Notes: a model not told the origin generated them from the letters alone. Shown: positions 1,951 to 22,576, counted from the stretch's first letter. The stretch is DNA of 32,000 bases from Clostridiaceae bacterium (GCA_018432235.1 JAHDLO010000012.1:1461-33460); one strand, 5' to 3'. Translations and numbers: made by a program.

Positions 1951-1971
1951 AGAATAAAGGGGAGTGAGAGT

Positions 1972-4900
1972 ATGAACTGGCAACATTTTCAAACTTATAA
2001 CGAGGCACCAACACGAGCTTTTGAATGTATGTGCAATCAATTGTTTGAATTGTGGTGCAAAAAAACATATCCTGACTCTTTAAAGGTCGTTACAATTGTA
2101 AATGGTGCTGGAGGAGATGGAGGAGTTGAATCCTTTGCAATAAAAAAAGATGATACAATTATCGGAATGCAAGCTAAGTGGTTTTCAAATAGTATTACCA
2201 CAGGCCAGTTCGCTCAAATTAGCAGTTCGATTAAAACTGCTCTTAGAGTAAGACCATTGATAAGACAATATATTGTATGTGTTCCTCGTGATTTATCATC
2301 AGATCGCATTGGTAGAGGAAAGAAGGTTATAGAAGATACTGAATTAAATCGTTGGCAACAGTTAAAAAATAAATTAGAAGATGATTATCCAGGATTGAAT
2401 ATTGAGTTATGGAATGAAACTCAACTTTTAACTAAATTGCAAGATAGTGATGCTACAGGGATATACCGATATTGGTTTGAAAAATCCGAGATATCAAAAG
2501 AGCTTATTGTGTACTCTTACGAGAAACAAAAAAGTGGATGGTTATCGCAGAAATATACTCCTTGTCTGCATATTCAAGGACAAATGCAAAAAAGCATTTT
2601 AAAATTCGTAGGAACATTAGATAATCGTCAAAGCAGTATAAGTACGCTGAGTGCTATGAGCCAGCAATGCAGCAAATTTTTGAAAGCGTGTGATGACTAT
2701 TTACAATTTGTTCAAGATCATTCATCGCAGGAGCAGTTAATACATGAAATTCAGAGAACTCAAGAGCAAGTAATTAAGTTATTAGGTGAGATAAAATGTA
2801 TTATAGATGCTTTAAATAATGACCAACAAGTTGCATCCTCAATTAACGAAAACAATTGGTATATTGATTTTGCTATGCTAATAGAGTTGTTAAAACAAAA
2901 CGAGCAATTAAGAAAAAATTACTTTCACATTAGCGAGATTAAAAAAACTGCCGAAGCACTTCAGGAAAATGAAATCCATACTATTATTTCGGATATTCGT
3001 TTTCAATTAGATAATAAAAAATATCTGATATTAGGTAATCCTGGTTCGGGAAAAACACATGGAATAGCTAACCTGGTGGAATCATTACTAAATGAAAATT
3101 TACATATCCCGATATTAATTCGTGCGAAAGATGTCAATCCAAATAGCAATTGGGCTGATATCTTAAAAAAATCTTTAGGGTTAGCTTCGGTTTGGAATGA
3201 AACAGAATTGTGGCAGGCTTTAGAAGCATTGTCGTATCGTGCAGAAGTTAATAATGTCTATACAGCAGACATTGTTGTAGCTAAAATCATTCCGAAGATA
3301 TTAATTTGCATTGATGGGGTGGATGAATCTAAACCATATGACTTATGGTATGATCGCCTTAGAGAGATAGAAGCAATATGTTACAAATATTCCAGGCTGA
3401 GGTTTTGTATTACAAGTCGACCATATGTATTTAGAGAATTGGCATATGATGATAGCTTATTAATTAATACATTAAGACTACCTTCTGATGGCGATGTTCC
3501 GGTAAACGAATTATTTCTAGAATATATTGAATATTTTCATATAAATATCGAAGGGTGCTCTTGGATTAAATGGAGCTTAAAGACTCCTCTTGCATTGCGT
3601 GTTTTTTGTGAGAATTATAGGCATAGAAGTATATACGGCGTAGAAAAATCTTCTGTTACTATTACTAATCTTTTATCGAAGAAGTTTCATATAATTGAAA
3701 AAGAATTTAACTCCAAATATGAAACGGGGTATGGAGATAGAGAGCTTATTGTGCAAAATTCATTATTAGCAATAGCCAGAAAGCTTCTAATAAATACAAC
3801 GGTGTATAGAAATGATTTAATTGATTCTCTGAAAGACGTTTCAGGGCTTATTACCGCTGCCAATGATTATCGAAGAGAACTTATTGATTTTATCGAAGAT
3901 TATGGAATACTGCAGAGCTATACAATAAATTCAGATACTATATTTGAGCCTCCAAAAACATATTATTCTATTGGCGTTCAGCCCTTTTTTGATTATATAC
4001 TGGCACTATTAATTACTAATCAAATACAAGATCCATCAGAGGTCACACTTACAGATACATTAGTAGACCACGAGGGTGCTCTGCAAATGGTATCTATTCT
4101 TCTTTTGGAAGATTATTGCTACTTGATAACTGAGAATAAAAGTTTCAGAGATAATTTAAGTAATAACGAATTATTTGATTTAGTTTGCTTTTCATTATCA
4201 AACGTATCACCAACCCCTACATCTAAATATATACCTTTGGTCAAAAGGATGATGAATTATAATTCGGACTGTTTAAAAAGTGTTGTGAATAAAATTGTTC
4301 TTCCGGTATCACGAATTGAGAATCATCCTCTTGGTGCACAGATGTTACATGAGTACCTTATGAGTTTTGAAACTGCGGGAAAACGTGACGTTATATGGTC
4401 TGTACCTAGCTATTTAAGGTATCCAGGAGATGCTCCTTGGAAATGTTACACAAAAATTGATTTAAACGACAAAAGATATAAATTATGTGGTGAGGACAAG
4501 CATAATAGTATTCCCTTAGTCTATGCATGGATGCTAACCACTGTTAATAATATTGAAAGAGTGAGTTATAGGCGAGAACTAATGAAATGGGCTTTTAGGC
4601 AACCTTTTGAATTTTATAAAATGTTCGAGCATACATGGTGCACTAACGATCCTCAGATGAAAGAAGATTTATTTTCAGTAGCAATGGGGACTGTATTTAT
4701 GCTTGAAAAAGGACATCCCTGTATTAAATTATTCAGTGATTGGATGATAAAAAATATTTTTGCTTCAGATAAAATTAGTATGCATTATAATTGTGCTATT
4801 CGATATTACAGCAGAGCTATTGTTGAACGGTCCTATGCATTTGGTAACATAAATGATGAGGATGTAAGTAAGAGCCGTCCACCATTTCATACAAGTGGAA

Positions 4901-6531
4901 CTATCCCTCTTAATCGTGAGGCTACTTCTGGTACCCGGATGGGTGGCTTTGGGCCAATTGATTATGATTTGGCAAGATATGTTCTGTGTGATCCTATGGA
5001 TAGAATGTTTTTCAGCCGCCACGGTAGTGATAAAACTGCTGAAGAGATTGACTATACATGGCATTTTTCTGAGAAAGAAATTGAAGATATATTGACTAAC
5101 GAAGAAATTTTTCTTAATGAGAAATGTAGAGAAAAATTGAGAGAGATTCAGCTTGCATACAAAAAGCAAAGGAGATTTTGGGATCATCTGGATGATTTGA
5201 TTGATGACGGTGAAGATACCACCACTCCAAATTCGAAATCGCCTGCTTACAAATACAATAAAGAAGCAGACAGCTTCTTGTTAGAACATGCGCGAATTAT
5301 GGAAATGGAATCACTTGAACCTAATCAATTTGTCCTATCAGCTGCATATGCTTACATTCTACTACAGGGATGGAATGAAGAAGAGTTCTACGGTTGTCCT
5401 AATGGAGGTAAACCTGGGGAAGTAATCGGTGTTGATATTGCAATTTTGCGCCAACACCATCCCGCAACTCACGGTTCCAAAAGTAGCATAATGACTTTTT
5501 GTGAGAAGTATACATGGTGCGCTCGCAATGAAATTTTAGGATATTTATCAGATCGGTTACCATTTAGAGATTTTGAGAGAGCGCCATCATTACTGAACGA
5601 TTATGGTTTACTTGATGATTTCCCAAATCCAGCGCAAGAATTATATCAAGAAAATCCAGATAGCATTATGGAAAAAACCTCTTGGTTTGTCCCAGAGGAA
5701 CTATCACCTTTAATTAACGAAAATGTGGGAGAAAATGCCATAAGATATTGGATAATAAATGCTCCTACTCCTAATTTTGAAAAATGGATTGATATTCGTG
5801 ATTTCAACCATGAAATTGTACAAGAAGAGAAAAAGAATTGGATACCATTATATAGTTTTAATTCTGTATCTAATACTTTGGGTGGAGAATCACTTATGTG
5901 GATTTCTTCAGCAATAATCACAAATGAGCATTTTAAATACTTAAAAAATGACATAATGAATCGAAAAGACTCCTTAGTTTATAATTTAAGCAATCCTGAG
6001 GATTTACATTCATCTACTGAGACTCAATGCTATATAACCCCTAAAGAGATATGCTGGATGAATTGGAAAAATGAGTGTTACAATAAAATCTATAATATTT
6101 CTATTGATGATGGCGATTTTGTGGAATATACAATTGATAAGACAGTTGAAGAGTGTACAGCTAATTATCCTGAATTTGGTGATGTATATTATAAACTACC
6201 TTCCCGAATTATACGAGAATTGCTGGGCATATGTGATGGGGATGGGTATAAGTACTGTAATGGAGAAAAACAGCTTGAAGCAATTAGGTTTGAAGCAGGA
6301 GAAAAGTGGCATGACTCACAATCATATTTATGTGTTAATCGAGAAAAACTGCTTTTGCAATTAGAGCATCTTAAATTACAGATTTTTTGGACTGCTAGAT
6401 TACTCAGACAAGCTACTTCAAAAGCGCTTGAGAAATATCCTAAACTGCGGAGTCGAAATGACAAATGCTGGTTAGTTTGGTTTGAAGATGGAGAGTTAAG
6501 AACTCTTCTTTTTTCAGAGCAGGTTGATTAA
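1972..6531 (+). CDS. Giant NACHT-type STAND NTPase (bacterial NLR-like/Avs-like) with an N-terminal Mrr-like PD-(D/E)xK nuclease-type domain and a C-terminal region of about 900 aa of unknown fold
   Basis: 1519-aa uninterrupted ORF with a GGGGAG RBS, beginning 21 nt after the toxin stop. Walker A is GNPGSGKTH (nt 3034-3060). Walker B is the NACHT style ILICIDGVDES (nt 3301-3333). The NACHT signature RFCITSRPYVF follows. The N-terminus reads FECMCNQLFELW...GDGGVESFAI...GMQAKWF, matching the Mrr_cat pattern FExL...DGGID...QcK. Confidence 0.8.
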   Translation: MNWQHFQTYNEAPTRAFECMCNQLFELWCKKTYPDSLKVVTIVNGAGGDGGVESFAIKKDDTIIGMQAKWFSNSITTGQFAQISSSIKTALRVRPLIRQYIVCVPRDLSSDRIGRGKKVIEDTELNRWQQLKNKLEDDYPGLNIELWNETQLLTKLQDSDATGIYRYWFEKSEISKELIVYSYEKQKSGWLSQKYTPCLHIQGQMQKSILKFVGTLDNRQSSISTLSAMSQQCSKFLKACDDYLQFVQDHSSQEQLIHEIQRTQEQVIKLLGEIKCIIDALNNDQQVASSINENNWYIDFAMLIELLKQNEQLRKNYFHISEIKKTAEALQENEIHTIISDIRFQLDNKKYLILGNPGSGKTHGIANLVESLLNENLHIPILIRAKDVNPNSNWADILKKSLGLASVWNETELWQALEALSYRAEVNNVYTADIVVAKIIPKILICIDGVDESKPYDLWYDRLREIEAICYKYSRLRFCITSRPYVFRELAYDDSLLINTLRLPSDGDVPVNELFLEYIEYFHINIEGCSWIKWSLKTPLALRVFCENYRHRSIYGVEKSSVTITNLLSKKFHIIEKEFNSKYETGYGDRELIVQNSLLAIARKLLINTTVYRNDLIDSLKDVSGLITAANDYRRELIDFIEDYGILQSYTINSDTIFEPPKTYYSIGVQPFFDYILALLITNQIQDPSEVTLTDTLVDHEGALQMVSILLLEDYCYLITENKSFRDNLSNNELFDLVCFSLSNVSPTPTSKYIPLVKRMMNYNSDCLKSVVNKIVLPVSRIENHPLGAQMLHEYLMSFETAGKRDVIWSVPSYLRYPGDAPWKCYTKIDLNDKRYKLCGEDKHNSIPLVYAWMLTTVNNIERVSYRRELMKWAFRQPFEFYKMFEHTWCTNDPQMKEDLFSVAMGTVFMLEKGHPCIKLFSDWMIKNIFASDKISMHYNCAIRYYSRAIVERSYAFGNINDEDVSKSRPPFHTSGTIPLNREATSGTRMGGFGPIDYDLARYVLCDPMDRMFFSRHGSDKTAEEIDYTWHFSEKEIEDILTNEEIFLNEKCREKLREIQLAYKKQRRFWDHLDDLIDDGEDTTTPNSKSPAYKYNKEADSFLLEHARIMEMESLEPNQFVLSAAYAYILLQGWNEEEFYGCPNGGKPGEVIGVDIAILRQHHPATHGSKSSIMTFCEKYTWCARNEILGYLSDRLPFRDFERAPSLLNDYGLLDDFPNPAQELYQENPDSIMEKTSWFVPEELSPLINENVGENAIRYWIINAPTPNFEKWIDIRDFNHEIVQEEKKNWIPLYSFNSVSNTLGGESLMWISSAIITNEHFKYLKNDIMNRKDSLVYNLSNPEDLHSSTETQCYITPKEICWMNWKNECYNKIYNISIDDGDFVEYTIDKTVEECTANYPEFGDVYYKLPSRIIRELLGICDGDGYKYCNGEKQLEAIRFEAGEKWHDSQSYLCVNREKLLLQLEHLKLQIFWTARLLRQATSKALEKYPKLRSRNDKCWLVWFEDGELRTLLFSEQVD

Positions 6532-6578
6532 ATTAATTATAAAAGGGATCTATCTTTGGATAATTCAAGCGGGTCTAT

Positions 6579-6705
6579 CAGTTTATACCATTGAATAAGC
6601 TCACAAGATGTTTTTGAAAAAAGTGGTATGTGATTCTATATAAATCAAGGATCAGAGCTATGACTATAACGTGGAGTCGGAAGGTAGTAACCGTTTATAA
6701 GGAAT
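6579..6705 (+). pseudogene. Decayed duplicate of the 3' end of the RelE/ParE toxin gene
   Basis: It aligns by eye with 1818-1940. Shared strings are TTTATACC, TCACAAGATGTT, TGATTCT and ATCAAGGATCAGA, in the same order and spacing. It contains a 1-nt deletion and in-frame stops (e.g. TAA at about 6640). Confidence 0.6.
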
Positions 6706-6711
6706 AGGGTA

Positions 6712-6996
6712 ATGGGAGAAGAACCGTATGATTTGTTCGGTACATTTTTAGCTGCCAGCAAGTTTGAAGGTATTGTGTTTGCTAAGAACCAGGACCATGG
6801 GGAAGAATTAGTTAAAAAATTGATTTCTGGCTATCCACTTGAGGCTGGAGAACCTTTCAGTATTATCGGAGGCTTAGATAAGACTTTGGAAGAAATCTAT
6901 AATGAACGTCCGGAGCTTATTGGAATAACATCGGAGCAAGGGGATATTTATAATGAATTCATGCACAGAAATTCTATAAGCAAGTACGTTCGATAA
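6712..6996 (+). CDS. Hypothetical 94-aa protein
   Basis: ORF lying between the STAND gene and the HNH-like gene on the same strand. I recognise no motif. It could be a fragment of something larger. Confidence 0.4.
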   Translation: MGEEPYDLFGTFLAASKFEGIVFAKNQDHGEELVKKLISGYPLEAGEPFSIIGGLDKTLEEIYNERPELIGITSEQGDIYNEFMHRNSISKYVR

Positions 6997-7015
6997 AAGT
7001 AATAGGGGGTTCATA

Positions 7016-8323
7016 ATGTGCAGATGTATATATTGTAATTCAGATGATTTATCAGTCTCTGACATCATTTCATATGCTTTAACTGGTGCTAAAGTAACAA
7101 AAAAATTTGTGTGCCATGAGCATAATGCATTTACAAACGAAAACTTTGAAAGATTTGCAATAGCCAATCTTGATTTTTTCAGGAACTCATTAGGCTTGTC
7201 TGAAAGAAGAAGCGGTAAGGATATTAAATATAGAGCTAATTTAGTTATTGATGGAATTACCATACCAAATGTTGCGGTAAGCGGTAGAACGTCAATTTAT
7301 GAAGACAAGAAAAGACTTTTTTCTGCCGAGCATGATGGTAAAAAAGTTTTGATTGGCAATGTGGATAAGCTAAAGCAGAAAAAAGGTGTCTGCGCTGGTA
7401 ATATAGATACTTTAGATATGAGCGACACAGTTGTAAGTGTTACGTTTTCCATCGAACAATTATTTGCTTCTGATGAAATGTTAAGGACAATCGCTAAAAT
7501 TGCTTACGAGTGGTATTGCTATTCTAATAAAATCAATAGTTTTATACCTGAAATATATCAAGACATCGTTGATTGCGTTCTAATGAAACGAAACGTTACA
7601 GAATTTGTAGAAATTGTTGTTGACGGAAATCTTGATTATGCATTAAAAGATATTTGTTATTTGGGAAGTCACGGATTGTTTGAGTACGTTGATATAGATG
7701 GATATAAATATGTCATTCTAAATTTTTGGGGCATTATCTATTATAAAATTCGTATTTGTAATTTAAATAGTCCTAATTTTAATTTGGCTAATTATTATAA
7801 TCTTTTTTTATATGCAATAGACGGAGAAAAATCAGAGACCTGTTTTGGTACAATGGGAAAATCGAACTTTATTTCAATGCCCGCCAAACAGGCAATGCAA
7901 AAATTCAATAAGGTATATGCCTCAAAGCTGGAACAGCTTGTAAAAACCACTGTTCTATCTCTTGCTAAGATGAAAGAGTTAATTGATGAATTGCGAAAAG
8001 CTATTACAATATATAAGCAACCACCTTATGATTTTGCTCGTCTTGTTGAATATGAATGTAATGAGCGAATAACGACAATTCATGTATTATTATTTCTTTT
8101 GGGGCATGAAGAAAACTATATATTTAGTAGTAGTTTTAATGAAAACCTTAAATCATTCTACAAGATTGATGATACACTAACCGTGACGGTAGAGGAAAAC
8201 AAGGAATATCTTAGATATTTGCTGCAACTCCATGAAAGTGGTACGCTACTAAACTCTATAGAAGAAGGAATAACGTTTTTTGATAAAATATATTTATATG
8301 AAAAGAGTAACATAAAAGATTAA
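7016..8323 (+). CDS. 435-aa protein with an N-terminal HNH_5-like Cys motif (degenerate catalytic His) and an uncharacterised C-terminal domain
   Basis: AGGGGG RBS and low GC like the STAND gene. The N-terminus is CIYCNSDDLSVSDIISYALTG...VCHEHN. This parallels the HNH pattern CxYC...(E/D)HIIPxxLGG...C..CN, but has Ile where the catalytic His is expected and CHEHN in place of CxxCN. Confidence 0.6.
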   Translation: MCRCIYCNSDDLSVSDIISYALTGAKVTKKFVCHEHNAFTNENFERFAIANLDFFRNSLGLSERRSGKDIKYRANLVIDGITIPNVAVSGRTSIYEDKKRLFSAEHDGKKVLIGNVDKLKQKKGVCAGNIDTLDMSDTVVSVTFSIEQLFASDEMLRTIAKIAYEWYCYSNKINSFIPEIYQDIVDCVLMKRNVTEFVEIVVDGNLDYALKDICYLGSHGLFEYVDIDGYKYVILNFWGIIYYKIRICNLNSPNFNLANYYNLFLYAIDGEKSETCFGTMGKSNFISMPAKQAMQKFNKVYASKLEQLVKTTVLSLAKMKELIDELRKAITIYKQPPYDFARLVEYECNERITTIHVLLFLLGHEENYIFSSSFNENLKSFYKIDDTLTVTVEENKEYLRYLLQLHESGTLLNSIEEGITFFDKIYLYEKSNIKD

Positions 8324-8531
8324 TTCGAGCTTCTGCTATCTATTATGTGAGCATAATGGGAGCTTGGCTAAGGCGTTGAGAAATCAGCACCTTTTTTTTA
8401 TGCCCAAAAATCAAGAAAGGTGGTTTAGCCCATATGAATGCTATCAGGTGGAAACTAATAGAAACCCTTTGTATGATTGGCAGAGCTTCTTTTTCGGCCA
8501 GTAATATTTGAAATCAAATGTAACCATATTT

Positions 8532-8609
8532 CAACACAAGACTGCTGTCTTGTGTTGTAGCAAGCACTGAATAATGCCAGCATTATTCGCTTGTCAGGGA
8601 TAATCCCTG
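8532..8609 (+). other. Candidate oriT: three consecutive inverted repeats upstream of mobC/relaxase
   Basis: IR1 is CAACACAAGAC-tgct-GTCTTGTGTTG (8532-8557, a perfect 11-bp stem). IR2 is GAATAATGC-ca-GCATTATTC (8569-8588). IR3 is CAGGGA-taa-TCCCTG (8595-9609 region, precisely 8595-8609). They lie 29 nt upstream of the mobC start, the usual oriT position. Confidence 0.5.
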
Positions 8610-8637
8610 AAACCCTTAAAAGAACAGGAGGTTATAT

Positions 8638-9009
8638 ATGCTTAAACGAAGCATAAAAGTGACATTTCGTATGAATACTAGAGAATTTCAGCGATTAAAA
8701 ACTCAGGTGAAGAAAACCGGACTTTCGCAGGAAGCTTTTATTCGTTCACTTATAAACGGTTATATGCCCAAGGAACTGCCTCCTATCGATTACTTCTCTA
8801 TGATGCGAGAGCTTCACGCTATTGGAAACAATTTAAATCAACTTGCGGCTAAGGCTAATGCCACAGGGCATATTGATAAAGCTGTTTTTCAGTATGAAGC
8901 AAACCGACTTAGAAGGGCTGTACAGGATATACAAGAAGCAGTTATATCACCGGAAAGGAGAGAAAACTATGGCAACCACAGCAATATGGGATGTGACAGA
9001 CCGCCTTGA
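8638..9009 (+). CDS. mobC: MobC-type relaxosome accessory protein (ribbon-helix-helix)
   Basis: 123-aa ORF with a GGAGG RBS. The pattern KVTFRMNTREFQRLKTQVKKTGLSQEAFIRSLI...ELHAIGNNLNQLAAKAN is typical of MobC/RHH mobilisation proteins. It overlaps the relaxase start. Confidence 0.75.
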   Translation: MLKRSIKVTFRMNTREFQRLKTQVKKTGLSQEAFIRSLINGYMPKELPPIDYFSMMRELHAIGNNLNQLAAKANATGHIDKAVFQYEANRLRRAVQDIQEAVISPERRENYGNHSNMGCDRPP

Positions 9010-10360
9010 CCGAGTAATTGATTATGCCACTAATCCCAACAAAACAGAGAACCTTGATTTTTCCAGTCCTGATTTTCAGGATTTGCAGAAGGTGCTGGAT
9101 TACACACAGCAGGATGCCAAAACCGAAAGGCAATTTTATGTAACGGGAATCAACTGCGACCCGGTCACTGCCTGCGAACAAATGAGCCGGACAAAGTTCC
9201 AGTTTCAAAAGACGGAAGGCATACTGGCTTTTCACGGTTACCAAGCCTTTGCACCGGGAGAAGCCACACCTGAAACCGCTCATGCCATCGGCGTAAAGCT
9301 GGCGCAGGAGCTATGGGGCGACCGTTTTGAGGTAGTGGTTTCCACCCACCTTGACAAGCAGCATCTTCATAATCATTTTGTGCTGAACTCTGTGTCCTTC
9401 ATGGACGGCAAGCGGTATTATGATAATAAGGCTACTTATGCCCTCATGCGGCAGACCTCCGACCGGCTGTGCCGGGAATACTCCCTTTCCGTTATTGAAA
9501 ACCCAAAACGGGGAAAATCGAAGCATTATGCCGAATGGAAGGCCGAAAAGGAAGGTAAGCCCACCTGGCGGGGACAGATCCGGGAGGATGTTGACAGTAT
9601 GATTGCCGCCTCCATGACTTTCACACAGTTTATCGCCACTCTCCGCAAGCAGGGATATGAAGTTAAAACCGGTGTGAAATACATGGCGGTGCGTCCGCCG
9701 GGCAAGGAGCGTTTTGTCCGGCTGAAAACCTTGGGGGACGATTACACTGAGGAAGCCATTAAGCAGCGCATCCTGCAAAACCGCAGCCCAAAGCGGGAGC
9801 AAATTCTCCCGGAACCTAAACGAAAACGGTATATCTTAAAAGGTTCTTTCAAGACAGCGAAGAAAATAACCGGACTGCAAGCTCTTTACTTTCATTACTT
9901 ATATAAGATGGGGATTCTGCCCCGAAAACGTGCGTCCAGCAAAAGGACGCATTTTTTATTGCGGGAGGACCTCCGGTACCTGGAGGAAATCACCGAACAA
10001 ACCAAGCTGCTTTGTGCTCACCATATTTCGAGCAAGGGGCAGCTTTTCACATATCAGTTAGCCGCGGAGCAGGAAATGAGCAGACTGTATGCCGACCGCA
10101 AAGCCCTTTACAACCGGATACGTCGCTGTAAGGACGATGAGCTGGTAACGGCATATAAGGAGCAGATTGCCGGACTTTCCAAAAAACTTTCCCTGCTCCG
10201 CAAGGAGGTGAAGCTCTGTACGGGCATCCTGTCCCGTTCCGAGGAAATGAAGCGGAAGTTGCTTCAAGTCAGACAGGAAGAAATCCAACATGGAAAGGAG
10301 GAAAAAACTTATGAACAACGGAGCCGACGCAGCGGACCAAATCGTAAATATGAGTTTTAA
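8969..10360 (+). CDS. Relaxase/mobilisation nuclease (MobA/VirD2-type)
   Basis: I moved the start to the ATG at 8969 (MATTAIWDV...), which follows GGAGAG. The histidine-triad motif is STHLDKQHLHNHFVLNSV. The C-terminal half is coiled-coil. Confidence 0.85.
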   Translation: MATTAIWDVTDRLDRVIDYATNPNKTENLDFSSPDFQDLQKVLDYTQQDAKTERQFYVTGINCDPVTACEQMSRTKFQFQKTEGILAFHGYQAFAPGEATPETAHAIGVKLAQELWGDRFEVVVSTHLDKQHLHNHFVLNSVSFMDGKRYYDNKATYALMRQTSDRLCREYSLSVIENPKRGKSKHYAEWKAEKEGKPTWRGQIREDVDSMIAASMTFTQFIATLRKQGYEVKTGVKYMAVRPPGKERFVRLKTLGDDYTEEAIKQRILQNRSPKREQILPEPKRKRYILKGSFKTAKKITGLQALYFHYLYKMGILPRKRASSKRTHFLLREDLRYLEEITEQTKLLCAHHISSKGQLFTYQLAAEQEMSRLYADRKALYNRIRRCKDDELVTAYKEQIAGLSKKLSLLRKEVKLCTGILSRSEEMKRKLLQVRQEEIQHGKEEKTYEQRSRRSGPNRKYEF

Positions 10361-11114
10361 AGGAATTGAGGTGCTGGCTAAAATCTCCGGTGAGGGAGCA
10401 AAAAACCTGGCTACCTATCTCTATGCTGTGCTGAAAGACCAGAAAAAGACCAGAGGTAAGACCCGTCTGGAGGGGCTTTTGCGCAGTGGTAAGGAACTGA
10501 AAGTCTTTGCAGTCAAGAACGAAGATTTACAGAAATTCACCCAGGAGGCAAAACGTTACGGCGTACTCTATTGCGCTCTCCGTGACAAAAATGATACTGA
10601 CGGCATGTGCGACATTATGGTGAGGGCGGAGGATGCATCCAAAATCAATCGCATTGTGGAACGTTTCAAGCTGGCTACTGTGGATACGGCAAGCATCAAG
10701 AGTGAAATCGAAAAATCCAGAGCTGCCAAGGAAGAGGAAAAAACTCCTGTCGAAAAAGGAACGCCCACCGAAAAAAGCACGGATGATTTTCTGGACGAAC
10801 TCATGGCAAAGCCCGAACAGCCGGAGCCGGTAAAGGAGCAGCCCGACAACCCAAACCCCACCACGGCGACGACGGAGAAATCCCATCCGTCCGAGCCTAT
10901 CTCAGAGCGCAGCGGGAAAGCCGCCGAGGGTACTATTGAGCGGCCAAGAAGATCCGTCCGCGAAGAATTGTGGGAAATCAAGGCCGCTCAAAAGGAGCAG
11001 GCGGCACAGCCCAAGCGCGAGCCTGCCAGAGAACAGCAAACTGCCGCAAAACAAAATGTCAAATCTGACAGGCAGCAAACGAAATCCATAAAACCAAAAT
11101 CGAAAGCGAGGTAA
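10311..11114 (+). CDS. pcfB: PcfB/DUF3801 family conjugation protein with a Pro/Glu/Lys-rich tail
   Basis: Start at the ATG at 10311, after GGAAAGGAGG. The pattern IVNMSFKGIEVLAKISGEGAKNLATYLYAVLKDQKKTRGKTRLEGLLRSGKELKVF...AKRYGVLY matches my memory of the PcfB family. Confidence 0.65.
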   Translation: MNNGADAADQIVNMSFKGIEVLAKISGEGAKNLATYLYAVLKDQKKTRGKTRLEGLLRSGKELKVFAVKNEDLQKFTQEAKRYGVLYCALRDKNDTDGMCDIMVRAEDASKINRIVERFKLATVDTASIKSEIEKSRAAKEEEKTPVEKGTPTEKSTDDFLDELMAKPEQPEPVKEQPDNPNPTTATTEKSHPSEPISERSGKAAEGTIERPRRSVREELWEIKAAQKEQAAQPKREPAREQQTAAKQNVKSDRQQTKSIKPKSKAR

Positions 11115-11119
11115 GCTTT

Positions 11120-12019
11120 ATGAGTAATTTCGATGATTTGTTCAAACAGGAAAATGCGCAACCTCCTTCCTCAAACGACCAGCCCTTTGATAAGGAAGCA
11201 TGGAAGCAGCAGAAGCAGGAACAGCGGGAAACGGTTTACGCCATGATTGATGACACGGCGGAAGCCGTGGCTAAGGACGGCACAAAATTTCAGAGCTATC
11301 TGGATGTACAAAGCCGTTTTGACCGTTACAGCGTTGCCAATGCCTTGTTAATCCTTGCGCAGCGGCCGGACGCTACCCGCATAGCGGATTTTGACACTTG
11401 GAAGGAGCAAGGTGTTTACATCCGCAAAAAGGAAAGTGGCTTCTACATCCTGGAGCCGGGCGAGGAATATCAGCGTGAAGACGGCACCACCGGCATCAGC
11501 TATAACCCTAAAAAAATGTTTGATATCACGCAGACCGGGAACAGCCGTAAGGGGGAGACGCCGTCCTATCCCGACGACCGTACTCGCATTAAAGCATTAA
11601 CGGCCCATTCACCTGTTCCCATCCGTATCAGCGATTCCTTGCCTGAAGGTGCAAACGCCCTATACCAGCCGGAAACAAGGGATATTATAATCCTTAAGGG
11701 CATGGACGCGGGCGATATTTTCCGCGCCCTTTCCCAGGAGCTTGCCCATGCGGAAATGGATACGGAAAATGGAAGCTACAGCCGTTCCGACCATGCCTTT
11801 CATGCCTACTGTACATCATACATGCTTTGCAAGCAGTATGGCGTGGACACGGACGGCTACCGTTTTGACCGTGCCCCCGAAATGCTGGAGAGCATGGATA
11901 CCCAGGAAATCCGGGCTGAGCTCTCTGTCATCCGGGATGCCAACTGTGAAATCTCAGGCAGGATGAACCGGGTGCTGGCGCAGCAAAGACAGCAAAAACG
12001 GCAGGAGCCGGAACGTTAG
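11120..12019 (+). CDS. ArdC-like ssDNA-binding (antirestriction-type) protein
   Basis: RYSVANALLILAQRPDATRIADFDTWKEQGVYIRKKESGFYILEP resembles the ArdC N-terminal/DUF1738 pattern (YS..N.lLI..Q.P.AT.va.f..Wke.Gr.vkKGEkGi.IlaP). The C-terminal part has QELAH where an HExxH metalloprotease motif would sit. Confidence 0.5.
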   Translation: MSNFDDLFKQENAQPPSSNDQPFDKEAWKQQKQEQRETVYAMIDDTAEAVAKDGTKFQSYLDVQSRFDRYSVANALLILAQRPDATRIADFDTWKEQGVYIRKKESGFYILEPGEEYQREDGTTGISYNPKKMFDITQTGNSRKGETPSYPDDRTRIKALTAHSPVPIRISDSLPEGANALYQPETRDIIILKGMDAGDIFRALSQELAHAEMDTENGSYSRSDHAFHAYCTSYMLCKQYGVDTDGYRFDRAPEMLESMDTQEIRAELSVIRDANCEISGRMNRVLAQQRQQKRQEPER

Positions 12020-12031
12020 GAGGAATTGCAC

Positions 12032-12217
12032 ATGAAAGAAGAAAGGGTGCTTACCCTGAACGATTACGAATACGGCGTTGTGGTAAACGCTTTAAACGAA
12101 ATGCGCAACGACCTGATTAAAGAAGAACGGCCCACCGACGCAGTAGACGAACTGCTTCTCAAAACCATCGACGCCCCAAGCAAAAAAGTAAAAAGAAGAA
12201 ACCATGAAACGCGCTGA
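12032..12217 (+). CDS. Small conserved-looking hypothetical protein (61 aa) preceding the coupling protein
   Basis: ATG at 12032, 8 nt after a TAGGAGG RBS. It overlaps the start of the next gene by 14 nt, which suggests an operon. Confidence 0.5.
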   Translation: MKEERVLTLNDYEYGVVVNALNEMRNDLIKEERPTDAVDELLLKTIDAPSKKVKRRNHETR

Positions 12218-13967
12218 AACCGCAAGGAGTAACCTGATACTCTTTGCGGTTTTTTTAATTCCGGTGGTATGGGCGGCTTTGCTTACCGCCCCTTCTCTGT
12301 CAGGAGGACTTCCCGAAATTCTTGCCAACCTAACGGCGGCAATGGATAATCCCTTTCACGTCCAATGGGTTGACGATTCATTAAAGTGCATCCTGCTGTT
12401 TGTTGCTGCCTATGGGATGGGCATCGGGATTTACCTTTCCACCAAACGCAATTACCGGCGAAGGGAGGAACACGGCAGCGCCCGCTGGGGCGGCGCGGTG
12501 GCTGTCAATAAAAAATACAGGGATAAGATCCACTTCCGGAATAAAATCCTGACTCAGAATGTCCGTATCGGCCTGGATGGAAGAAAGCACAGACGGAATC
12601 TGAATGTGCTGGTGGTAGGCGGCTCCGGCTCCGGTAAGACGAGATTTTACGCCAAGCCTAACATCATGCAGGCCAACACCTCTTTTGTTGTGCTTGACCC
12701 CAAGGGGGAGATCCTGCGGGACACGGGAAATCTGCTCAAAGCCAAGGACTATGAAATCAAGGTGCTGGATTTAATCAACATGCACCTGTCCCACTGCTAC
12801 AATCCCTTTTCCTACCTACAGGACGACAAGGACGTGCTGAAGCTGGTGACCAACCTGATTAGAAATACCACGCCCAAAGGCAGTAATACCAACGACCCGT
12901 TTTGGGAGCGTTCTGAAACGGCCCTGCTGGAAGCATTAATCCTGTACCTGCTTTACGAAGCCCCGCCGGAGGAACAAAACTTCCCGATGGTCATGGAAAT
13001 GATTGCCGCAGCCGAGGTCCGGGAGGATGACGAAACTTATCAAAGTCCTTTGGATGAACTGTTTGAACGGCTGGAAATGCGGGAGCCGGAGCATCTGGCG
13101 GTCAAACAGTATAATATCTTTAAGCTGGCGGCAGGCAAGACTGCCAAAAGTATTCTTATCAGCTTGGGGGTGCGGCTGGAGAAATTTAACTTGGCTTCCA
13201 TAGCCGGAATTACCACCACGGACGAACTGGATCTGGCCTACATCGGAGAAAAGAAAACGGCACTTTTTGCCGTCATACCGGACAACGATTCATCCTTTAA
13301 TTTCATTATCGGTATGCTTTATACACAGCTATTCCAACAGCTCTACTTTCTTGCCGACCATAGGTACGACGGACGGCTCCCTATTCACGTCCATTTTGTC
13401 ATGGACGAGTTTTCCAATGTCGCTTTGCCGGATGAATTTGACAAGCTGCTTTCCACCATGCGGTCTCGTGAAATATCCGTTTCCATTATTCTGCAAAACC
13501 TAGCGCAGCTAAAAGCCTTGTTCAAGGATACCTGGGAATCCATCGTGGGCAACTGTGACGAATTTCTGTACCTGGGCGGCAACGAGCAAAGCACCCATAA
13601 GTATGTATCCGAGCTTTTGGGCAAGGAAACCATTGACACCAATTCCTACGGGCAGAGTAAGGGCAGAAACGGCAGCTATTCCATCAATTATCAATTGTCG
13701 GGGCGTGAGCTTCTGACTCCTGATGAAGTGCGAATGCTGGACAACCGCTATGCCTTGCTGTTTATCCGGGGAGAACGTGCGGTGATGGATGACAAGTACG
13801 ATATTTTAAAGCACCCCAACCTCAAGCTGACCGTTGACGGCAACAGCGAAGCTTTCCGTCACGGAGGCACGGAAAACGCCCTGGATTGGAAAGCTGTAAC
13901 CTTAAACGAGAACAGCGATTACGAGCTTCTCACCGAGGAAGAACTCGAAATCCTGCTGCAATCCTGA
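12204..13967 (+). CDS. virD4: Type IV coupling protein (VirD4/TraG family)
   Basis: 587 aa with two N-terminal TM segments. Walker A is VVGGSGSGKT and Walker B is VHFVMDEFSN. A conserved ILQNLAQL block is also present. Confidence 0.9.
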   Translation: MKRAETARSNLILFAVFLIPVVWAALLTAPSLSGGLPEILANLTAAMDNPFHVQWVDDSLKCILLFVAAYGMGIGIYLSTKRNYRRREEHGSARWGGAVAVNKKYRDKIHFRNKILTQNVRIGLDGRKHRRNLNVLVVGGSGSGKTRFYAKPNIMQANTSFVVLDPKGEILRDTGNLLKAKDYEIKVLDLINMHLSHCYNPFSYLQDDKDVLKLVTNLIRNTTPKGSNTNDPFWERSETALLEALILYLLYEAPPEEQNFPMVMEMIAAAEVREDDETYQSPLDELFERLEMREPEHLAVKQYNIFKLAAGKTAKSILISLGVRLEKFNLASIAGITTTDELDLAYIGEKKTALFAVIPDNDSSFNFIIGMLYTQLFQQLYFLADHRYDGRLPIHVHFVMDEFSNVALPDEFDKLLSTMRSREISVSIILQNLAQLKALFKDTWESIVGNCDEFLYLGGNEQSTHKYVSELLGKETIDTNSYGQSKGRNGSYSINYQLSGRELLTPDEVRMLDNRYALLFIRGERAVMDDKYDILKHPNLKLTVDGNSEAFRHGGTENALDWKAVTLNENSDYELLTEEELEILLQS

Positions 13968-13992
13968 AAAATCTACATGGAGGTATAATTCT

Positions 13993-14298
13993 ATGAAAAT
14001 GTCCAAAAGAACCAAAACGGCTTTTGCCGTATACTGCGCACTGGTATTAATGACTGCCCTTTTTACCGCACCAGCCTATGCCGCAAATGACCCGCTGACC
14101 GTCGTTAATAATCTATCCGATTTTATCTTCGGACTGATCCGCGCCATCGGGATGATCCTACTTGGTTTTGGTATAGTGCAAATCGGCCTTTCCCTCAAAT
14201 CCCACGACCCGTCTCAGAGAGCAAATGGGTTTCTCACTCTTGCCGGCGGCATCATTATTACCTTTGCCAAAGAGATTTTAAATCTCATTACAGGCTGA
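13993..14298 (+). CDS. Maff2 family small membrane protein (pilin/VirB2-like candidate)
   Basis: 101 aa with a GGAGG RBS. It has a signal-like N-terminus ending AYAAND, followed by two hydrophobic helices. This is the typical Maff2 position, directly after the coupling protein. Confidence 0.7.
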   Translation: MKMSKRTKTAFAVYCALVLMTALFTAPAYAANDPLTVVNNLSDFIFGLIRAIGMILLGFGIVQIGLSLKSHDPSQRANGFLTLAGGIIITFAKEILNLITG

Positions 14299-14376
14299 TA
14301 TGAAGCGCCTCAAATATAAGGGGAACTGGCCGGTAAAAGCCTGTTCCCCAAATTTCTTCAAGGAGGTGGTTTTGTT

Positions 14377-15216
14377 ATGTCAAGCGGCAACTGGGTAATC
14401 GACAACTTGAACAACGCCCTGCAGACATGGAATGAAAAGCTGGCGGAAATCTGGCAGCTTGTGGCCCAATCTCCCACAGAATTTAAAGGCGGCGGTATTT
14501 GGAACGTTATTGTAAATATCCATGATGCATTGCAGGCCATCGGCCTTGCTCTGCTGGTACTGTTCTTCGTAATCGGTGTGGTTAAAACCTGCGGCAGCTT
14601 CGCGGAAGTCAAAAAGCCCGAACACGCTTTGAAGCTGTTCATCCGCTTTGCCCTGGCCAAAGGCGTGGTGACCTATGGGCTGGAGTTGATGATGGCACTG
14701 TTCAACATTGTGCAGGGCATAATCTCTACTATTATGACCAACGCGGGCTTTACGACTACCACCCCAACCGTCCTGCCAGACACAATTGTGCAGGCTGTCG
14801 AGGATTGCAGCTTCCTACAGAGCATACCGCTGTGGGCGGTGACCCTGATCGGAGGTCTGTTCATTACGGTGCTGTCCTTCATTATGATTCTGTCGGTGTA
14901 CGGGCGGTTTTTTAAATTATATTTATACACAGCAATCGCCCCCGTACCTATGGCCTCCTTTGCGGGAGAACCGAGCCAGAGCATCGGCATATCCTTCTTG
15001 AAAGGCTATGCCGCCGTCTGTCTGGAAGGGGCAATCATTGTCCTTGCCTGTGTTATTTTTTCCGTCTTTGCAGTGTCACCGCCGGTGGTGGATAGCAGCG
15101 CCAGCGCCGTTACAATGGTGTGGAGCTATGTAGGAGAACTTATTTTCAATATGCTGGTGCTGGTCGGTGCCGTCAAGATGGCCGACCGGGTGGTACGGGA
15201 GATGATGGGGTTGTAA
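14377..15216 (+). CDS. VirB6/TrbL-like polytopic membrane protein of the T4SS
   Basis: 279 aa with an AAGGAGG RBS and at least 5 hydrophobic helices. It lies between the Maff2-like and PrgI-like genes, as in Clostridia ICEs. Confidence 0.7.
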   Translation: MSSGNWVIDNLNNALQTWNEKLAEIWQLVAQSPTEFKGGGIWNVIVNIHDALQAIGLALLVLFFVIGVVKTCGSFAEVKKPEHALKLFIRFALAKGVVTYGLELMMALFNIVQGIISTIMTNAGFTTTTPTVLPDTIVQAVEDCSFLQSIPLWAVTLIGGLFITVLSFIMILSVYGRFFKLYLYTAIAPVPMASFAGEPSQSIGISFLKGYAAVCLEGAIIVLACVIFSVFAVSPPVVDSSASAVTMVWSYVGELIFNMLVLVGAVKMADRVVREMMGL

Positions 15217-15405
15217 TGCTGTCAGCCGTTGATATTTCTCTCGTACTGATTTTGTTCCCGCTTGCTCCTGCACAAAGTCCGGAAAAAGAATGGAGACAAA
15301 AAGAGCATAGAGCAGTGGTATCCCAAGCCATAAGAAAGATGCGATTTTAAACATGGAGTTTAACAGAAGCATTAATAAAAATATGAAAATGGATATGTAC
15401 ATCAT
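15076..15405 (-). CDS. Possible small two-TM membrane protein encoded antisense. Its tail overlaps the 3' end of the virB6-like gene.
   Basis: On the minus strand, a strong RBS (GGAAAGGAGGG) sits 8 nt before ATGATG (the start at 15405). The product begins MMYISIFIFLLMLLLNSMFKIASFLWLGIPLLYALFVSILF. The reading frame only closes at 15076, inside the convergent gene. Confidence 0.3.
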   Translation of the reverse strand: MMYISIFIFLLMLLLNSMFKIASFLWLGIPLLYALFVSILFPDFVQEQAGTKSVREKYQRLTALQPHHLPYHPVGHLDGTDQHQHIENKFSYIAPHHCNGAGAAIHHRR

Positions 15406-15494
15406 AAATAAACCCTCCTTTCCTAATTCCATTATCACCCATGGAAAAAGAAAATGGAAGGATATCACAGTGATAAATCAAAAGGAGGTTTTGC

Positions 15495-15692
15495 ATGAAA
15501 TCTAATCATTACAATAAGCAACTGGAAAAAGAGAAAGAAAAGCTCAACAAGCTTGCGGATGAAGCCTTGAAAAATGGTATCCCACTTAATCAGCATGTGG
15601 CTTTTATGGAGCAGAACCGTAAGGTTGACGAATTGGTAGTGAGGATACAAAGGGAAAAGGAACGGCGAAAGAAGAACCAACAGGAACGATAA
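15495..15692 (+). CDS. 65-aa helical protein, tentatively Spo0E-like
   Basis: AAAGGAGG RBS. LEKEKEKLNKLADEALKNGIPLNQHVAFMEQNRKVDELVVRIQ loosely follows the Spo0E-family helix-hairpin pattern (L..L......G..l......S..LD.LI..y). It lies in a low-GC insert between T4SS genes. Confidence 0.35.
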   Translation: MKSNHYNKQLEKEKEKLNKLADEALKNGIPLNQHVAFMEQNRKVDELVVRIQREKERRKKNQQER

Positions 15693-15752
15693 GGCAAACA
15701 ACCCCACAAAGCTTCATTGCACGGAGCTTTTTTTATTTGGAGGTGATTATAA

Positions 15753-16118
15753 TTGGAAGTTAAAATCAACCGGGAAATCCGGGATTATACGGAAAGTATG
15801 TTTTTTGGACTGTCCATGCGGCAGTTCATTTTTTCTGTACTGGCCGTAGGAATTGCCGTGGGCTTCTATTTCGGTTTGCGGGACTACTTCGGAACTGAAA
15901 CTGTGAGCTGGATGTGCGTTTTGGGTGCAGCCCCTTGTGCTGCCCTGGGCTTTATCAAATACCACGGCATGACTGCGGAGCAGTTTTTATGGGCGTATAT
16001 CAAATCGGAGTTTCTCATACCTAAAAAGCTGACATTTTATCCTACCAACGTGTATTACGAAGCATTGAAGCCGAGCATTGAGAAACACGAGAAGGAGGAA
16101 TACAAAAGCCATGATTAA
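15753..16118 (+). CDS. PrgI family/VirB3-like T4SS membrane protein
   Basis: TTG start 8 nt after GGAGGTG. The N-terminus EVKINREIRDYTESMFFGLSMRQFIF plus two TM helices fits the family. It overlaps the virB4 start. Confidence 0.7.
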   Translation: MEVKINREIRDYTESMFFGLSMRQFIFSVLAVGIAVGFYFGLRDYFGTETVSWMCVLGAAPCAALGFIKYHGMTAEQFLWAYIKSEFLIPKKLTFYPTNVYYEALKPSIEKHEKEEYKSHD

Positions 16119-18447
16119 GACTCTGCAAAAAATTATGAAGCAGGATAAGGAGAAATTTATAGTCCCCAAAGGCGTCCAGCAAGCTATCCCTATACGCGCC
16201 ATCTGGCCGGATGGGATTTTTCGTGTTGGCAACAAATTTTCCAAATCCTTTCGCTTTGAAGATATAAATTATGCAGTAGCCTCCAAGGAGGATAAGGAAG
16301 CTATGTTTTTATCCTATTCGGAGCTTTTAAATTCCTTTGACAGCGGAGCCACCACTAAAATCACCATCAACAACCGGCGTTTGAATAAAACAGACTTTGA
16401 AAACTCCATCCTGATTCCTTTAAGGAACGACCGGCTGGACGAGTACCGCAGTGAATATAATCAGATGCTCATGGATAAGGCCAGCGGCGCAAATAGCATT
16501 GTACAGGACAAATATGTGACAGTCTCTGTAATGAAAAAGAACATTGAGGAAGCGAGAAACTACTTCTCCCGTATCGGCACCGACCTGATTACCCATTTTT
16601 CTCATCTTGGTTCCAGATGTGTAGAGCTGAACGCCATTGATCGGCTTAGAATCCTGCACGACTTCTTCCGTTCCGGTGAGGAAACGGATTTTCGTTTTGA
16701 CCTGTCCGAAACCATGAGAAAAGGGCACGATTTTAAAGATTATATCTGCCCCGACACCTTTGAGTTTGAAAAAGATCACTTTCGCATGGGCAGCAAATTC
16801 GGGCGTGTCATCTTTCTGCGTGAGTATGCCAGCTACATCAAGGACAGTATGGTATCCGAATTGTGCGATTTAAACCGTAATATGATGTTGTCGCTGGACA
16901 TTATCCCCATCCCCACCGACGAAGCTGTGCGGGAGGTGGAGAACCGGCTGCTGGGAGTGGAAACCAATATCACCAACTGGCAGCGCAGGCAGAACCAAAG
17001 CAACAACTTTTCCGCCGTGGTGCCCTATGACATGGAGCAGCAGCGCAAGGAAAGCAAAGAATTTCTTGACGACCTGACCACCCGCGACCAGCGGATGATG
17101 TTTGCCGTGCTGACGATGATACACATTGCGGACAGCAAAGAGCAGCTTGACGGTGATACCGAAACCCTGCTGACCACGGCACGAAAACACCTATGCCAGT
17201 TTTCCCCCCTGACCTATCAGCAGATGGACGGCTTGAATACGGTACTGCCATACGGTTTGCGAAAAATCGACGCCATACGGACACTGACCACTGAAAGCAC
17301 GGCGGTGTTCATTCCATTCAGGGCACAGGAGATTGCTCACAGCGGCGGTATCTATTACGGCCAGAATGTTATCAGCAAGAACATGATTATCGCCAACCGC
17401 AAGCACCTGCTAAACGGCAACAGCTTCATTCTGGGGGTGTCCGGCTCCGGTAAGAGCTTTACTGCCAAGAGGGAAATCGTCAATCAGATGCTTGCCAGTG
17501 ACGACGACATTATCTTAATCGACCCCGAAAGGGAGTATTCCTCCCTTGTCAAAGCGATGGGCGGTGAGATCATTCACATCTCTGCGACCTCTCCCAATCA
17601 TATCAACGCAATGGACATGAACAAGGATTATGGTGATGGTGCAAACCCCGTTATCCTAAAATCTGAATTTGTACTGTCCCTGTGTGAGCAGCTCATAGGC
17701 GGACAAAACCTGGGCGCGAAACAGAAATCCTTGATTGACCGCTGTACAGCAAGTGTCTACCGGAAATATCTGCAAAACAATTTCAAGGGAACACCGCCCA
17801 CCTTGCAGGACTTTCATGGGGAGCTTTTAAAGCAGGATGAACCTGAGGCCCAAGAAATTGCCCTTGCCATAGAATTGTTTACCAGCGGCAGCCTGAACAC
17901 CTTTGCCAAACACACCAACGTGGATGTGAACAACCGCCTGATCTGCTATGACATTCTTGATTTAGGAAAACAGCTTCTTCCCATCGGGATGCTGGTGGTG
18001 CTGGACAGCATACTAAACCGCATCACGCAAAACCGGGCAAAAGGCAAGAACACCTTTATCATTATTGATGAAATTTATCTGCTGTTCCAGCATGAGTACA
18101 GCGCCAATTTCCTGTTCACTCTCTGGAAGCGTGTTAGGAAGTACGGCGCTTTTTGCACGGGCATCACACAGAATGTGGACGATCTTTTGCAGAGCCATAC
18201 GGCACGGACCATGCTGGCCAACAGTGAGTTTATTGCCATGCTCAATCAGGCTTCTACGGACAGAATGGAGCTTGCCAGGTTAATAAATATTTCCGACCTT
18301 CAGCTTTCCTACATCACAAACGTAGATGCCGGTAACGGACTCATTAAGGTGGGCAGCTCCCTTGTGCCCTTCAAGGACCAATTCCCGCACAATACAAAGC
18401 TCTATAACTTGATGACCACCAAGCCGGGAGAGCAGGCGACAATATGA
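16111..18447 (+). CDS. virB4: VirB4-type conjugation ATPase
   Basis: Start at the ATG at 16111, after GAAGGAGG. Walker A is GVSGSGKS and Walker B is TFIIIDEIY. It is about 778 aa. Confidence 0.9.
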   Translation: MIKTLQKIMKQDKEKFIVPKGVQQAIPIRAIWPDGIFRVGNKFSKSFRFEDINYAVASKEDKEAMFLSYSELLNSFDSGATTKITINNRRLNKTDFENSILIPLRNDRLDEYRSEYNQMLMDKASGANSIVQDKYVTVSVMKKNIEEARNYFSRIGTDLITHFSHLGSRCVELNAIDRLRILHDFFRSGEETDFRFDLSETMRKGHDFKDYICPDTFEFEKDHFRMGSKFGRVIFLREYASYIKDSMVSELCDLNRNMMLSLDIIPIPTDEAVREVENRLLGVETNITNWQRRQNQSNNFSAVVPYDMEQQRKESKEFLDDLTTRDQRMMFAVLTMIHIADSKEQLDGDTETLLTTARKHLCQFSPLTYQQMDGLNTVLPYGLRKIDAIRTLTTESTAVFIPFRAQEIAHSGGIYYGQNVISKNMIIANRKHLLNGNSFILGVSGSGKSFTAKREIVNQMLASDDDIILIDPEREYSSLVKAMGGEIIHISATSPNHINAMDMNKDYGDGANPVILKSEFVLSLCEQLIGGQNLGAKQKSLIDRCTASVYRKYLQNNFKGTPPTLQDFHGELLKQDEPEAQEIALAIELFTSGSLNTFAKHTNVDVNNRLICYDILDLGKQLLPIGMLVVLDSILNRITQNRAKGKNTFIIIDEIYLLFQHEYSANFLFTLWKRVRKYGAFCTGITQNVDDLLQSHTARTMLANSEFIAMLNQASTDRMELARLINISDLQLSYITNVDAGNGLIKVGSSLVPFKDQFPHNTKLYNLMTTKPGEQATI

Positions 18448-18521
18448 TAAACCATACAAGCCTTAAACGACTATCCATATTTACGGTCAGCCGTTTATTT
18501 ATTAGTAAGGAGGAAAACACA

Positions 18522-18926: not shown

Positions 18927-18957
18927 GTCAACAAATTATGAAAAGGAGGTGCGCGCG

Positions 18958-22260: not shown

Positions 22261-22493
22261 TTGTACCCGGCGGGGCATTATGACTAATAGCAAAAGAATA
22301 GAAGAACACGGTTGTATATTCCGTTCAACGCAAATGCTTCAGTTGTGTTTTGGCAAATTGGGTTTTGAAAAAGTGAGAATCGAGCCAAAACTACCTTATC
22401 TTGTAATAGTTAATATATACAGAATAAACTTACCATGCCATGGATTATCTGTGCAGACTCCACAAAAATTATTAAAAAAAGAATTTTTCTTAT

Positions 22494-22553: not shown

Positions 22554-22576
22554 ATTATTTGATTGGAGGTGTGATT

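Follow-up and report, generated by a model that had tools for sequence, protein, structure and literature searches.

The 32,000-nucleotide (nt) stretch of DNA analysed here, referred to below as the window, comes from a Clostridiaceae bacterium (GCA_018432235.1 JAHDLO010000012.1:1461-33460) and carries at positions 1972-6531 a gene whose product of 1519 amino acids (aa) is, as judged by sequence comparison, an intact, full-length and ordinary Avs2 (AVAST type 2), a single-protein anti-phage sensor. Our reading, to which we give a probability of about 0.8, is that this Avs2 serves as an anti-phage pattern-recognition receptor, probably a terminase-triggered DNase, carried as cargo of an integrative conjugative element (ICE) in a Clostridia/Bacillota host. 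Family membership, domain folds, the integrity and conservation of motifs and the genomic context were determined in the present analysis. An initial annotation, made from the sequence by eye, had proposed an Avs/NLR-like tripartite protein, and this description was upheld by PADLOC, by profile search and by domain models; it had correctly identified the head and the NTPase but over-read the C-terminus.

The best PADLOC model was the Avs2 profile PDLC02164 (E=7.3e-78), in which aa 1-1484 aligned with profile positions 4-1465 of 1504, and it was one of four Avs2 models matched (PDLC02164, 02162, 02161 and 02166); no Avs1, Avs3 or Avs4 model matched at E<=1. A profile of 39 family members searched against the PDB retrieved chain A of 9O4E (EcAvs2, titled 'AVAST type 2 anti-phage system protein Avs2') at E=1e-32, aligning aa 191-1131 with EcAvs2 residues 181-1118. 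The numbering of this alignment was verified from the aligned Walker A lysine, K348, which is the residue mutated in the EcAvs2 study (PMC13601566). The family profile was required to reach 9O4E; a single-sequence search against the PDB gave no match. The same profile gave no sequence match to Avs3 or Avs4 in the PDB, and membership of Avs3 was rejected on the grounds that the likeness is structural only, with no hidden Markov model (HMM) or sequence match.

The published layout of EcAvs2 comprises an effector, a large helical extension, a STAND ATPase, an elaborate α-helical TPR domain and a β-strand-rich C-terminal sensor (PMC13601566), and the domain order found here matches it. A preprint on a trypsin-fused Avs2 describes the same layout with boundaries at 1-203, 204-700, 701-1170 and 1171-1461 (bioRxiv 10.64898/2026.08.25.746987). 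Homology with EcAvs2 spans the helical extension, the NTPase and the greater part of the TPR domain, and the D981-x-x-R-Y motif and a β-rich C-terminal domain (CTD) are common to both proteins, although the CTDs have no detectable sequence similarity. The gene and its parts are as follows.

1959..1964, + strand: Shine-Dalgarno-like GGGGAG, 7 nt 5' of the Avs2 ATG (read from the sequence)
1972..6531, + strand: complete Avs2-family gene, ATG start, 1519 aa and stop codon
1972..2541, + strand: aa 1-190, predicted PD-(D/E)xK (Mrr-like) nuclease effector (structure prediction, Foldseek, profile search)
aa 17-28: N-terminal motif FECMCNQLFELW, quoted in the initial annotation, position verified
aa 48-59: N-terminal motif GDGGVESFAIKK, likewise quoted and verified
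aa 65-71: N-terminal motif GMQAKWF, likewise quoted and verified
2116-2178, + strand: core D49-K69 of the predicted catalytic residues E18, D49, E53, Q67 and K69, invariant across relatives
2542..3006, + strand: aa 191-345, helical extension linking the effector to the NTPase, with the lowest conservation of any structured segment
3007..4041, + strand: aa 346-690, STAND NTPase module with nucleotide-binding, helical and winged-helix domains (Pfam, motifs, Foldseek)
3034-3060, + strand: aa 355-363, Walker A, GNPGSGKTH
3298-3330, + strand: aa 443-453, Walker B, ILICIDGVDES
3406-3432, + strand: aa 479-487, CITSRPYVF, with the TSRP arginine motif
4042..5826, + strand: aa 691-1285, irregular α-solenoid ('TPR'), modelled as all-helical with predicted local distance difference test (pLDDT) mostly >90; EcAvs2 TPR alignment to aa 1131
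4966..4980, + strand: D999-L-A-R1002-Y1003 motif, from the 9O4E alignment
5026..5328, + strand: aa 1019-1119, length-variable acidic helical insertion (26% D+E)
5182-5241, + strand: aa 1071-1090, acidic stretch DHLDDLIDDGEDTTTPNSKS, placed at 5180-5240 in the initial annotation
5827..6528, + strand: aa 1286-1519, β-strand-rich C-terminal sensor domain (DSSP strands with pLDDT >90; PADLOC Avs2 model to aa 1484)

The open reading frame (ORF) is without interruption, and both it and all the motifs quoted in the initial annotation were present where that annotation had placed them. Homologues at E<=1e-5 numbered 328 database proteins, many of them full-length and 35-90% identical, and E18, D49, E53, Q67, K69, G355, G358, G360, K361, D451, E452 and R483 were invariant in alignments of 32-117 relatives. 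Because of these 328 homologues and the invariance of the presumed catalytic residues, the gene is regarded as real and under selection. In public records the protein and its relatives are named 'hypothetical' or 'NACHT domain-containing', and a search of the 1519-aa protein against NCBIfam returned noise only, with no model that fits; the Avs2 label fills this annotation gap.

Nuclease head and NTPase

The model of aa 1-190 obtained with AlphaFold2 (AF2) had a pLDDT of 90.2 and showed an α-β-β-β-α-β restriction-endonuclease core (helix 13-32, strands 37-42, 54-58 and 63-68, helix 77-93, strand 97-103). Its top Foldseek match was the nuclease head of EcAvs4 in 8DGF (E=3e-5, query template modelling (TM) score 0.58), followed by EcoO109I, NucS/EndoMS, LlaBIII, EcoT38I and Card1/Can2. 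A sequence profile of the head searched against the PDB likewise found EcAvs4 alone (residues 5-108, E=0.002), with E18, E53, Q67 and K69 aligned to E22, E49, Q63 and K65 of that protein, the last two being residues that Gao et al. (2022) reportedly replaced by alanine. By model and by profile, then, aa 1-190 is a restriction-endonuclease (PD-(D/E)xK) fold of the 'Mrr-like' kind known from Avs proteins. Work on Avs proteins labels the EcAvs4 head as Mrr (bioRxiv 10.64898/2026.08.25.746987), and the label 'Mrr-like' is used here on account of the fold, the similarity to EcAvs4 and the literature, not of the Pfam Mrr_cat model. The initial proposal of an Mrr-like PD-(D/E)xK head thus held for the fold, as seen by AF2, Foldseek and the EcAvs4 profile match, and failed the Pfam Mrr_cat check (detailed below).

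KpAvs2, from Klebsiella pneumoniae, is alike in reported architecture, with a nuclease head, a STAND NTPase and a long Avs2 sensor; its head belongs to the Mrr family by HHpred, defence is lost in the mutants K71A and K337A, and infection leads to DNA degradation (PMC11564622). K71 and K337 occupy positions similar to K69 and K361 here, an equivalence by position only. EcAvs4, whose head is the best match of aa 1-190 by structure and by sequence, differs in its sensor and NTPase, which are unrelated at the family level, and recognises the portal protein. In EcAvs2 itself the N-terminal effector is unrelated and apparently not an enzyme, and it is because of this different head that aa 1-190 did not align with 9O4E.

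The alignment with EcAvs2 begins in the helical extension, where aa 191 corresponds to EcAvs2 residue 181. EcAvs2 has its 'large helical extension' in this place, near the terminase (PMC13601566). Mean identity of this segment to distant relatives was 22%. The NTPase module that follows matched Pfam NPHP3_N (E=7.7e-8, 33.1 bits versus a cut-off of 24.8), and among 32 relatives Pfam returned NPHP3_N in 29, nSTAND3 in 11, NACHT in 3 (best 2.3e-5) and NB-ARC in 2. The NACHT signature set out by Koonin and Aravind in 2000 reportedly consists of GxxxxGK[ST], a Walker B of the form hhhhDGhDE and a downstream TSRP arginine. Motifs of this type were found at aa 355-362 (GNPGSGKT), 443-452 (ILICIDGVDE) and 481-484 (TSRP). 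Position 448 of the Walker B is D or E among relatives, while D451, E452 and R483 of TSRP are invariant. Assignment of the NTPase to STAND is firm on these sequence grounds, and the motifs support a tentative placement in the NACHT clade. The STAND NTPase with NACHT-type Walker B and TSRP that the initial annotation had recognised was accordingly confirmed by motifs, NPHP3_N and invariance. The search with Pfam NACHT (PF05729) that it had proposed gave no match to the query at E<=1 and hit only 3/32 relatives, NPHP3_N being the above-threshold model instead. Neither the preprint by Kibby et al. nor the Nature paper of 2026 says whether the Avs2 NTPase belongs to the NACHT clade.

The C-terminal sensor

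The region from aa 600 to 1519, which the initial annotation had described as unassignable, was modelled by AF2 from a 117-sequence alignment. The model formed one unit (mean pLDDT 91.6, predicted template modelling (pTM) score 0.88) composed of a winged helix, an irregular α-solenoid to about aa 1285 and a strand-rich domain at about aa 1290-1519. Foldseek against the PDB gave two significant matches, both to chains of 8DGC (SeAvs3 with PhiV-1 terminase; E=1.6e-7, probability 1.00), and the other matches were weak ARM/HEAT or winged-helix noise. SeAvs3, the sole significant structural neighbour of this region in a Foldseek library without 9O4E, has its C-terminal sensor fold and its trigger class, terminase, in common with Avs2, and a β-rich C-terminal sensor is shared by Avs2 and Avs3 (PMC13601566); it differs in a longer TPR domain, a Cap4-type nuclease and an elongated tetramer.

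The CTD is the more diverged part, with 36% identity to distant relatives versus 41-45% for the adjacent solenoid segments. From 1.84 billion representative proteins, a profile of aa 1100-1519 retrieved 361, and among the 150 listed the full-length ones carried the match at or near the C-terminus of proteins of 1365-1751 aa, the shorter ones having the appearance of fragments. Six distant carriers were tested and 6/6 were Avs2 by PADLOC. This result fits the published description of the Avs2 sensor as clade-specific (PMC13581612). Effectors differed among the six, being Mrr-like, LmuA/Cap4-like or a GT4-conflict glycosyltransferase. Of the distant Avs2 with the same sensor, P0221 has the N-terminal GT4-conflict glycosyltransferase and P0160 the LmuA/Cap4-like head, and in P0235 an extra GNAT acetyltransferase domain lies C-terminal to the sensor.

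By profile and by predicted structure, the supposedly unassignable C-terminus is the usual sensor of the Avs2 family and not a novel kind. 'Unassignable' was a fair description for a reading by eye and for Pfam, which gave nothing beyond aa 483, but PADLOC, the PDB profile search and structure prediction do assign the region. It was thus recognisable after all, through the PADLOC match over aa 1-1484, the 9O4E alignment to aa 1131 and the structural neighbour SeAvs3. The new trigger specificity that had been suggested does not follow, because the sensor is typical of its family. A further description of this region as Trp- and Cys-rich applies mildly at most, since W and C at 2.3% each in aa 600-1519 equal the values for the whole protein. 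The finding has little weight beyond annotation and presents no new sensing principle.

The 9O4E alignment pairs D979-G-D981-F-S-R984-Y985 of EcAvs2 with D997-Y-D999-L-A-R1002-Y1003 here, where invariance applies to D999 and Y1003, and at least 90% of relatives keep R1002. In EcAvs2, D981 touches the Mg2+ of a bridging ATP and also R1130, which holds the terminase ATP (PMC13601566). D1045, R1048 and Y1049 of VcAvs2 contact terminase or its ATP (bioRxiv 10.64898/2026.08.25.746987); their spacing equals that of D999, R1002 and Y1003, an argument from spacing only.

Proposed mechanism and competing readings

By analogy with EcAvs2, KpAvs2, VcAvs2, SeAvs3 and EcAvs4 we propose the trigger, the formation of a tetramer, the DNase activity and an abortive outcome. 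In its resting state the protein would be an auto-inhibited monomer. Once a phage infects the cell, its large terminase subunit would dock, by way of the ATPase domain, in a pocket to which the helical extension (aa 191-345), the α-solenoid (aa 691-1285) and the β-rich CTD (aa 1286-1519) all contribute, with ATP-mediated contacts probably made through the invariant D999-x-x-R-Y motif. Terminase binding would release the STAND NTPase (Walker A K361; Walker B D448, D451 and E452) for ATP binding and tetramerisation, and the tetramer would gather four PD-(D/E)xK heads (E18, D49/E53, Q67-x-K69). These heads are predicted to cut DNA non-specifically, leading to death or arrest of the cell before phage release (abortive infection), which is the output expected for KpAvs2 as well.

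Several observations weigh against a terminase-triggered Avs2 nuclease. Some Avs2 proteins respond to the non-terminase triggers Ksap1/2 and vs.8 (PMC11564622, PMC13601566). The structural match to 8DGC has a low TM score (0.28) and a high root-mean-square deviation, indicating likeness of parts and not of overall pose, and it was obtained with a PDB library that ends in April 2026 and did not include EcAvs2 9O4E among the structures compared. Profiles of aa 1100-1519 and aa 960-1290 searched against the PDB retrieved no EcAvs2 or SeAvs3 chain. For this reason only D981, R984 and Y985 of EcAvs2 could be mapped, whereas T1128, R1130, R1132 and E1364 are not mappable by sequence. At the nuclease end, Pfam Mrr_cat (PF04471) gave no match at all, with cut-offs of E<=10 for the query and E<=0.01 for the 32 relatives.

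The initial annotation had taken the acidic stretch for a flexible linker between two independent sensor or effector modules, at aa ~600-1075 and ~1090-1519 and possibly of a new type. Residues 1071-1090 are indeed acidic and modelled with low confidence, and Pfam is empty past aa 483, but the stretch was found to be a disordered loop capping a helical hairpin within the insertion at aa 1019-1119. The sole segment with pLDDT <50 comprises model residues 480-484 (aa 1079-1083), and about 5-12 residues are disordered in what is otherwise a single confident model (pTM 0.88). From invariant F1013 to invariant G1133 there are 119 aa here, compared with 43-45 aa in the ~1420-aa proteins of Lachnospiraceae/Clostridia and 53 or 99-143 aa in others, and relatives that lack about 75 aa of the insertion keep both flanks collinear and conserved. 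The variable length of the insertion between conserved flanks therefore points to one sensor with a decorated loop. In addition, one Avs2 HMM spans both halves, the real change of fold, from helical to β-rich, lies near aa 1285 and not aa 1080, and the full-length proteins among the 150 representatives listed carry the second half at or near their C-termini. The two-module arrangement is consequently regarded as very improbable, and the division by an acidic linker was abandoned.

The main alternative, which we consider unlikely, is that this protein has the Avs2 fold and the same nuclease output but a sensor retuned to another trigger, either a terminase-ATPase-like phage protein, in the manner of Ksap1/2 and vs.8, or something unrelated. 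The precedents mentioned above, in which KpAvs2 and EcAvs2 accept non-terminase activators (PMC11564622, PMC13601566), favour it, as does the divergence of the region past about aa 1010, including the CTD, beyond sequence detection against EcAvs2 and SeAvs3; the helical extension and the CTD are also less conserved in distant relatives than the solenoid. Against it stand the overall retention of the sensor architecture and the invariance here of D-x-x-R-Y, a motif by which EcAvs2 and VcAvs2 contact terminase-bound ATP. There is likewise a small chance that the Bacillota/Clostridia clade as a group has retuned its Avs2 pocket towards an undescribed trigger range or a non-terminase trigger, a thought raised by a CTD diverged past sequence recognition and by an insertion present or absent between sister clades. 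The insertion of about 100 aa could act as an element of specificity or auto-inhibition, for example by occupying or gating the cavity for the terminase nuclease domain. The clade offers comparison material, combining a present or absent acidic insertion with an invariant D-x-x-R-Y in common with EcAvs2, and such comparisons could help to define which sensor features are essential for recognition of terminase and ATP. A role in the service of the mobile element instead of defence against phage, for instance in addiction or exclusion together with the neighbouring Phd/ParE pair, would fit the start of Avs2 only 21 nt past the ParE stop codon (1948-1950) and the same adjacency in two sister elements. 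We nevertheless think it scarcely probable, as homologues of 76-85% identity (P0004, P0010 and P0012) stand beside known defence genes, without this toxin-antitoxin pair or the conjugation genes of the window, and the family is anti-phage by experiment (PMC11564622, PMC13601566).

The host element and its other genes

The window is an ICE of Bacillota type, and Avs2 is a low-GC cargo gene within it. Its element genes are a DUF3991/Toprim primase-like gene, Phd/ParE, Avs2, a NikA-like gene with a relaxase, DUF3801, ArdC, VirD4, VirB2-like and VirB4-like genes, RadC and a large serine recombinase; no tRNA was found in the window. The neighbouring features are listed below.

1275-1950, + strand: Phd/YefM antitoxin and ParE toxin pair
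6712-6996, + strand: 94-aa ORF directly 3' of Avs2, no family match
7016-8323, + strand: 435-aa ORF in the low-GC Avs2 island, no Pfam, NCBIfam or PADLOC match
8638-20604: conjugation genes (NikA-like/relaxase, DUF3801, ArdC, VirD4, VirB2-like, VirB4/TraG-like, DUF6075, RadC)
29374-31089, + strand: large serine recombinase

GC content over positions 2000-9000 of the window was 32-36% compared with about 50% in the flanking conjugation genes; Avs2 and two small ORFs make up an island of 33-35% GC in a backbone of about 50%. The low GC content of this island indicates acquisition from a donor of lower GC. In sister elements from Clostridia metagenome-assembled genomes (MAGs) and Desulfosporosinus, Avs2 is 90-92% identical and occupies the same site, and the toxin-antitoxin pair is followed by Avs2 at the same spacing in L009, from Desulfosporosinus, and in L010, from a Clostridia MAG. 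The recurrence suggests that these genes are transcribed together and that a fixed hotspot for cargo lies between the primase-like gene and the relaxase module. A scan for promoters and terminators was uninformative (28 promoter-like sites versus 33 expected), and a DNA-level search of E. coli genomes and plasmid collections gave no match. The element documents an Avs2 lineage in anaerobic Bacillota, carried together with likely antibiotic-resistance cargo.

KpAvs2, from Enterobacteria where the host here belongs to Bacillota, shares an operon of three genes with Avap1 (radical SAM) and Avap2 (DUF6375), and neither partner was found in this locus: searches of Pfam, NCBIfam and PADLOC gave no match for the two downstream ORFs (6712-6996 and 7016-8323), and upstream lie Phd and ParE. 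The homologues of 76-85% identity reside in unrelated defence islands with no common neighbour. Since these homologues lack a conserved partner, Avs2 here is taken to be a stand-alone system, unlike the KpAvs2 operon. The surroundings of P0004, P0010 and P0012 (contexts L002-L007) contain Gabija-like pairs of OLD-TOPRIM and UvrD helicase, DUF3800, PLD-like, SLFN/AlbA_2, GmrSD and HipA.

Both small ORFs were considered as partners of Avs2 and rejected, the 435-aa ORF being missing from sister elements and neither occurring beside the 85%-identical homologue. Copies of the 94-aa ORF with 78-88% identity follow Avs2 in L008, L010 and L011 and are absent beside that homologue, P0004; this ORF is probably element backbone or hotspot filler. 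The 435-aa ORF was found in the window and in an identical contig (L001) only, and may represent further cargo with a defence or nuclease function. Its N-terminus, MCRCIYCN...VCHEHN, resembles a Cys/His motif of HNH- or zinc-ribbon-like kind.

Between the conjugation genes and the recombinase lie, all on the + strand, a TetR-family regulator (22280-23170), an 847-aa protein with PPDK_N and PEP-utilizers domains in the architecture of a rifampin phosphotransferase (23215-25758) and an MFS transporter (25866-27122). The segment 22280-27122 is a probable antibiotic-resistance cargo of the same element.

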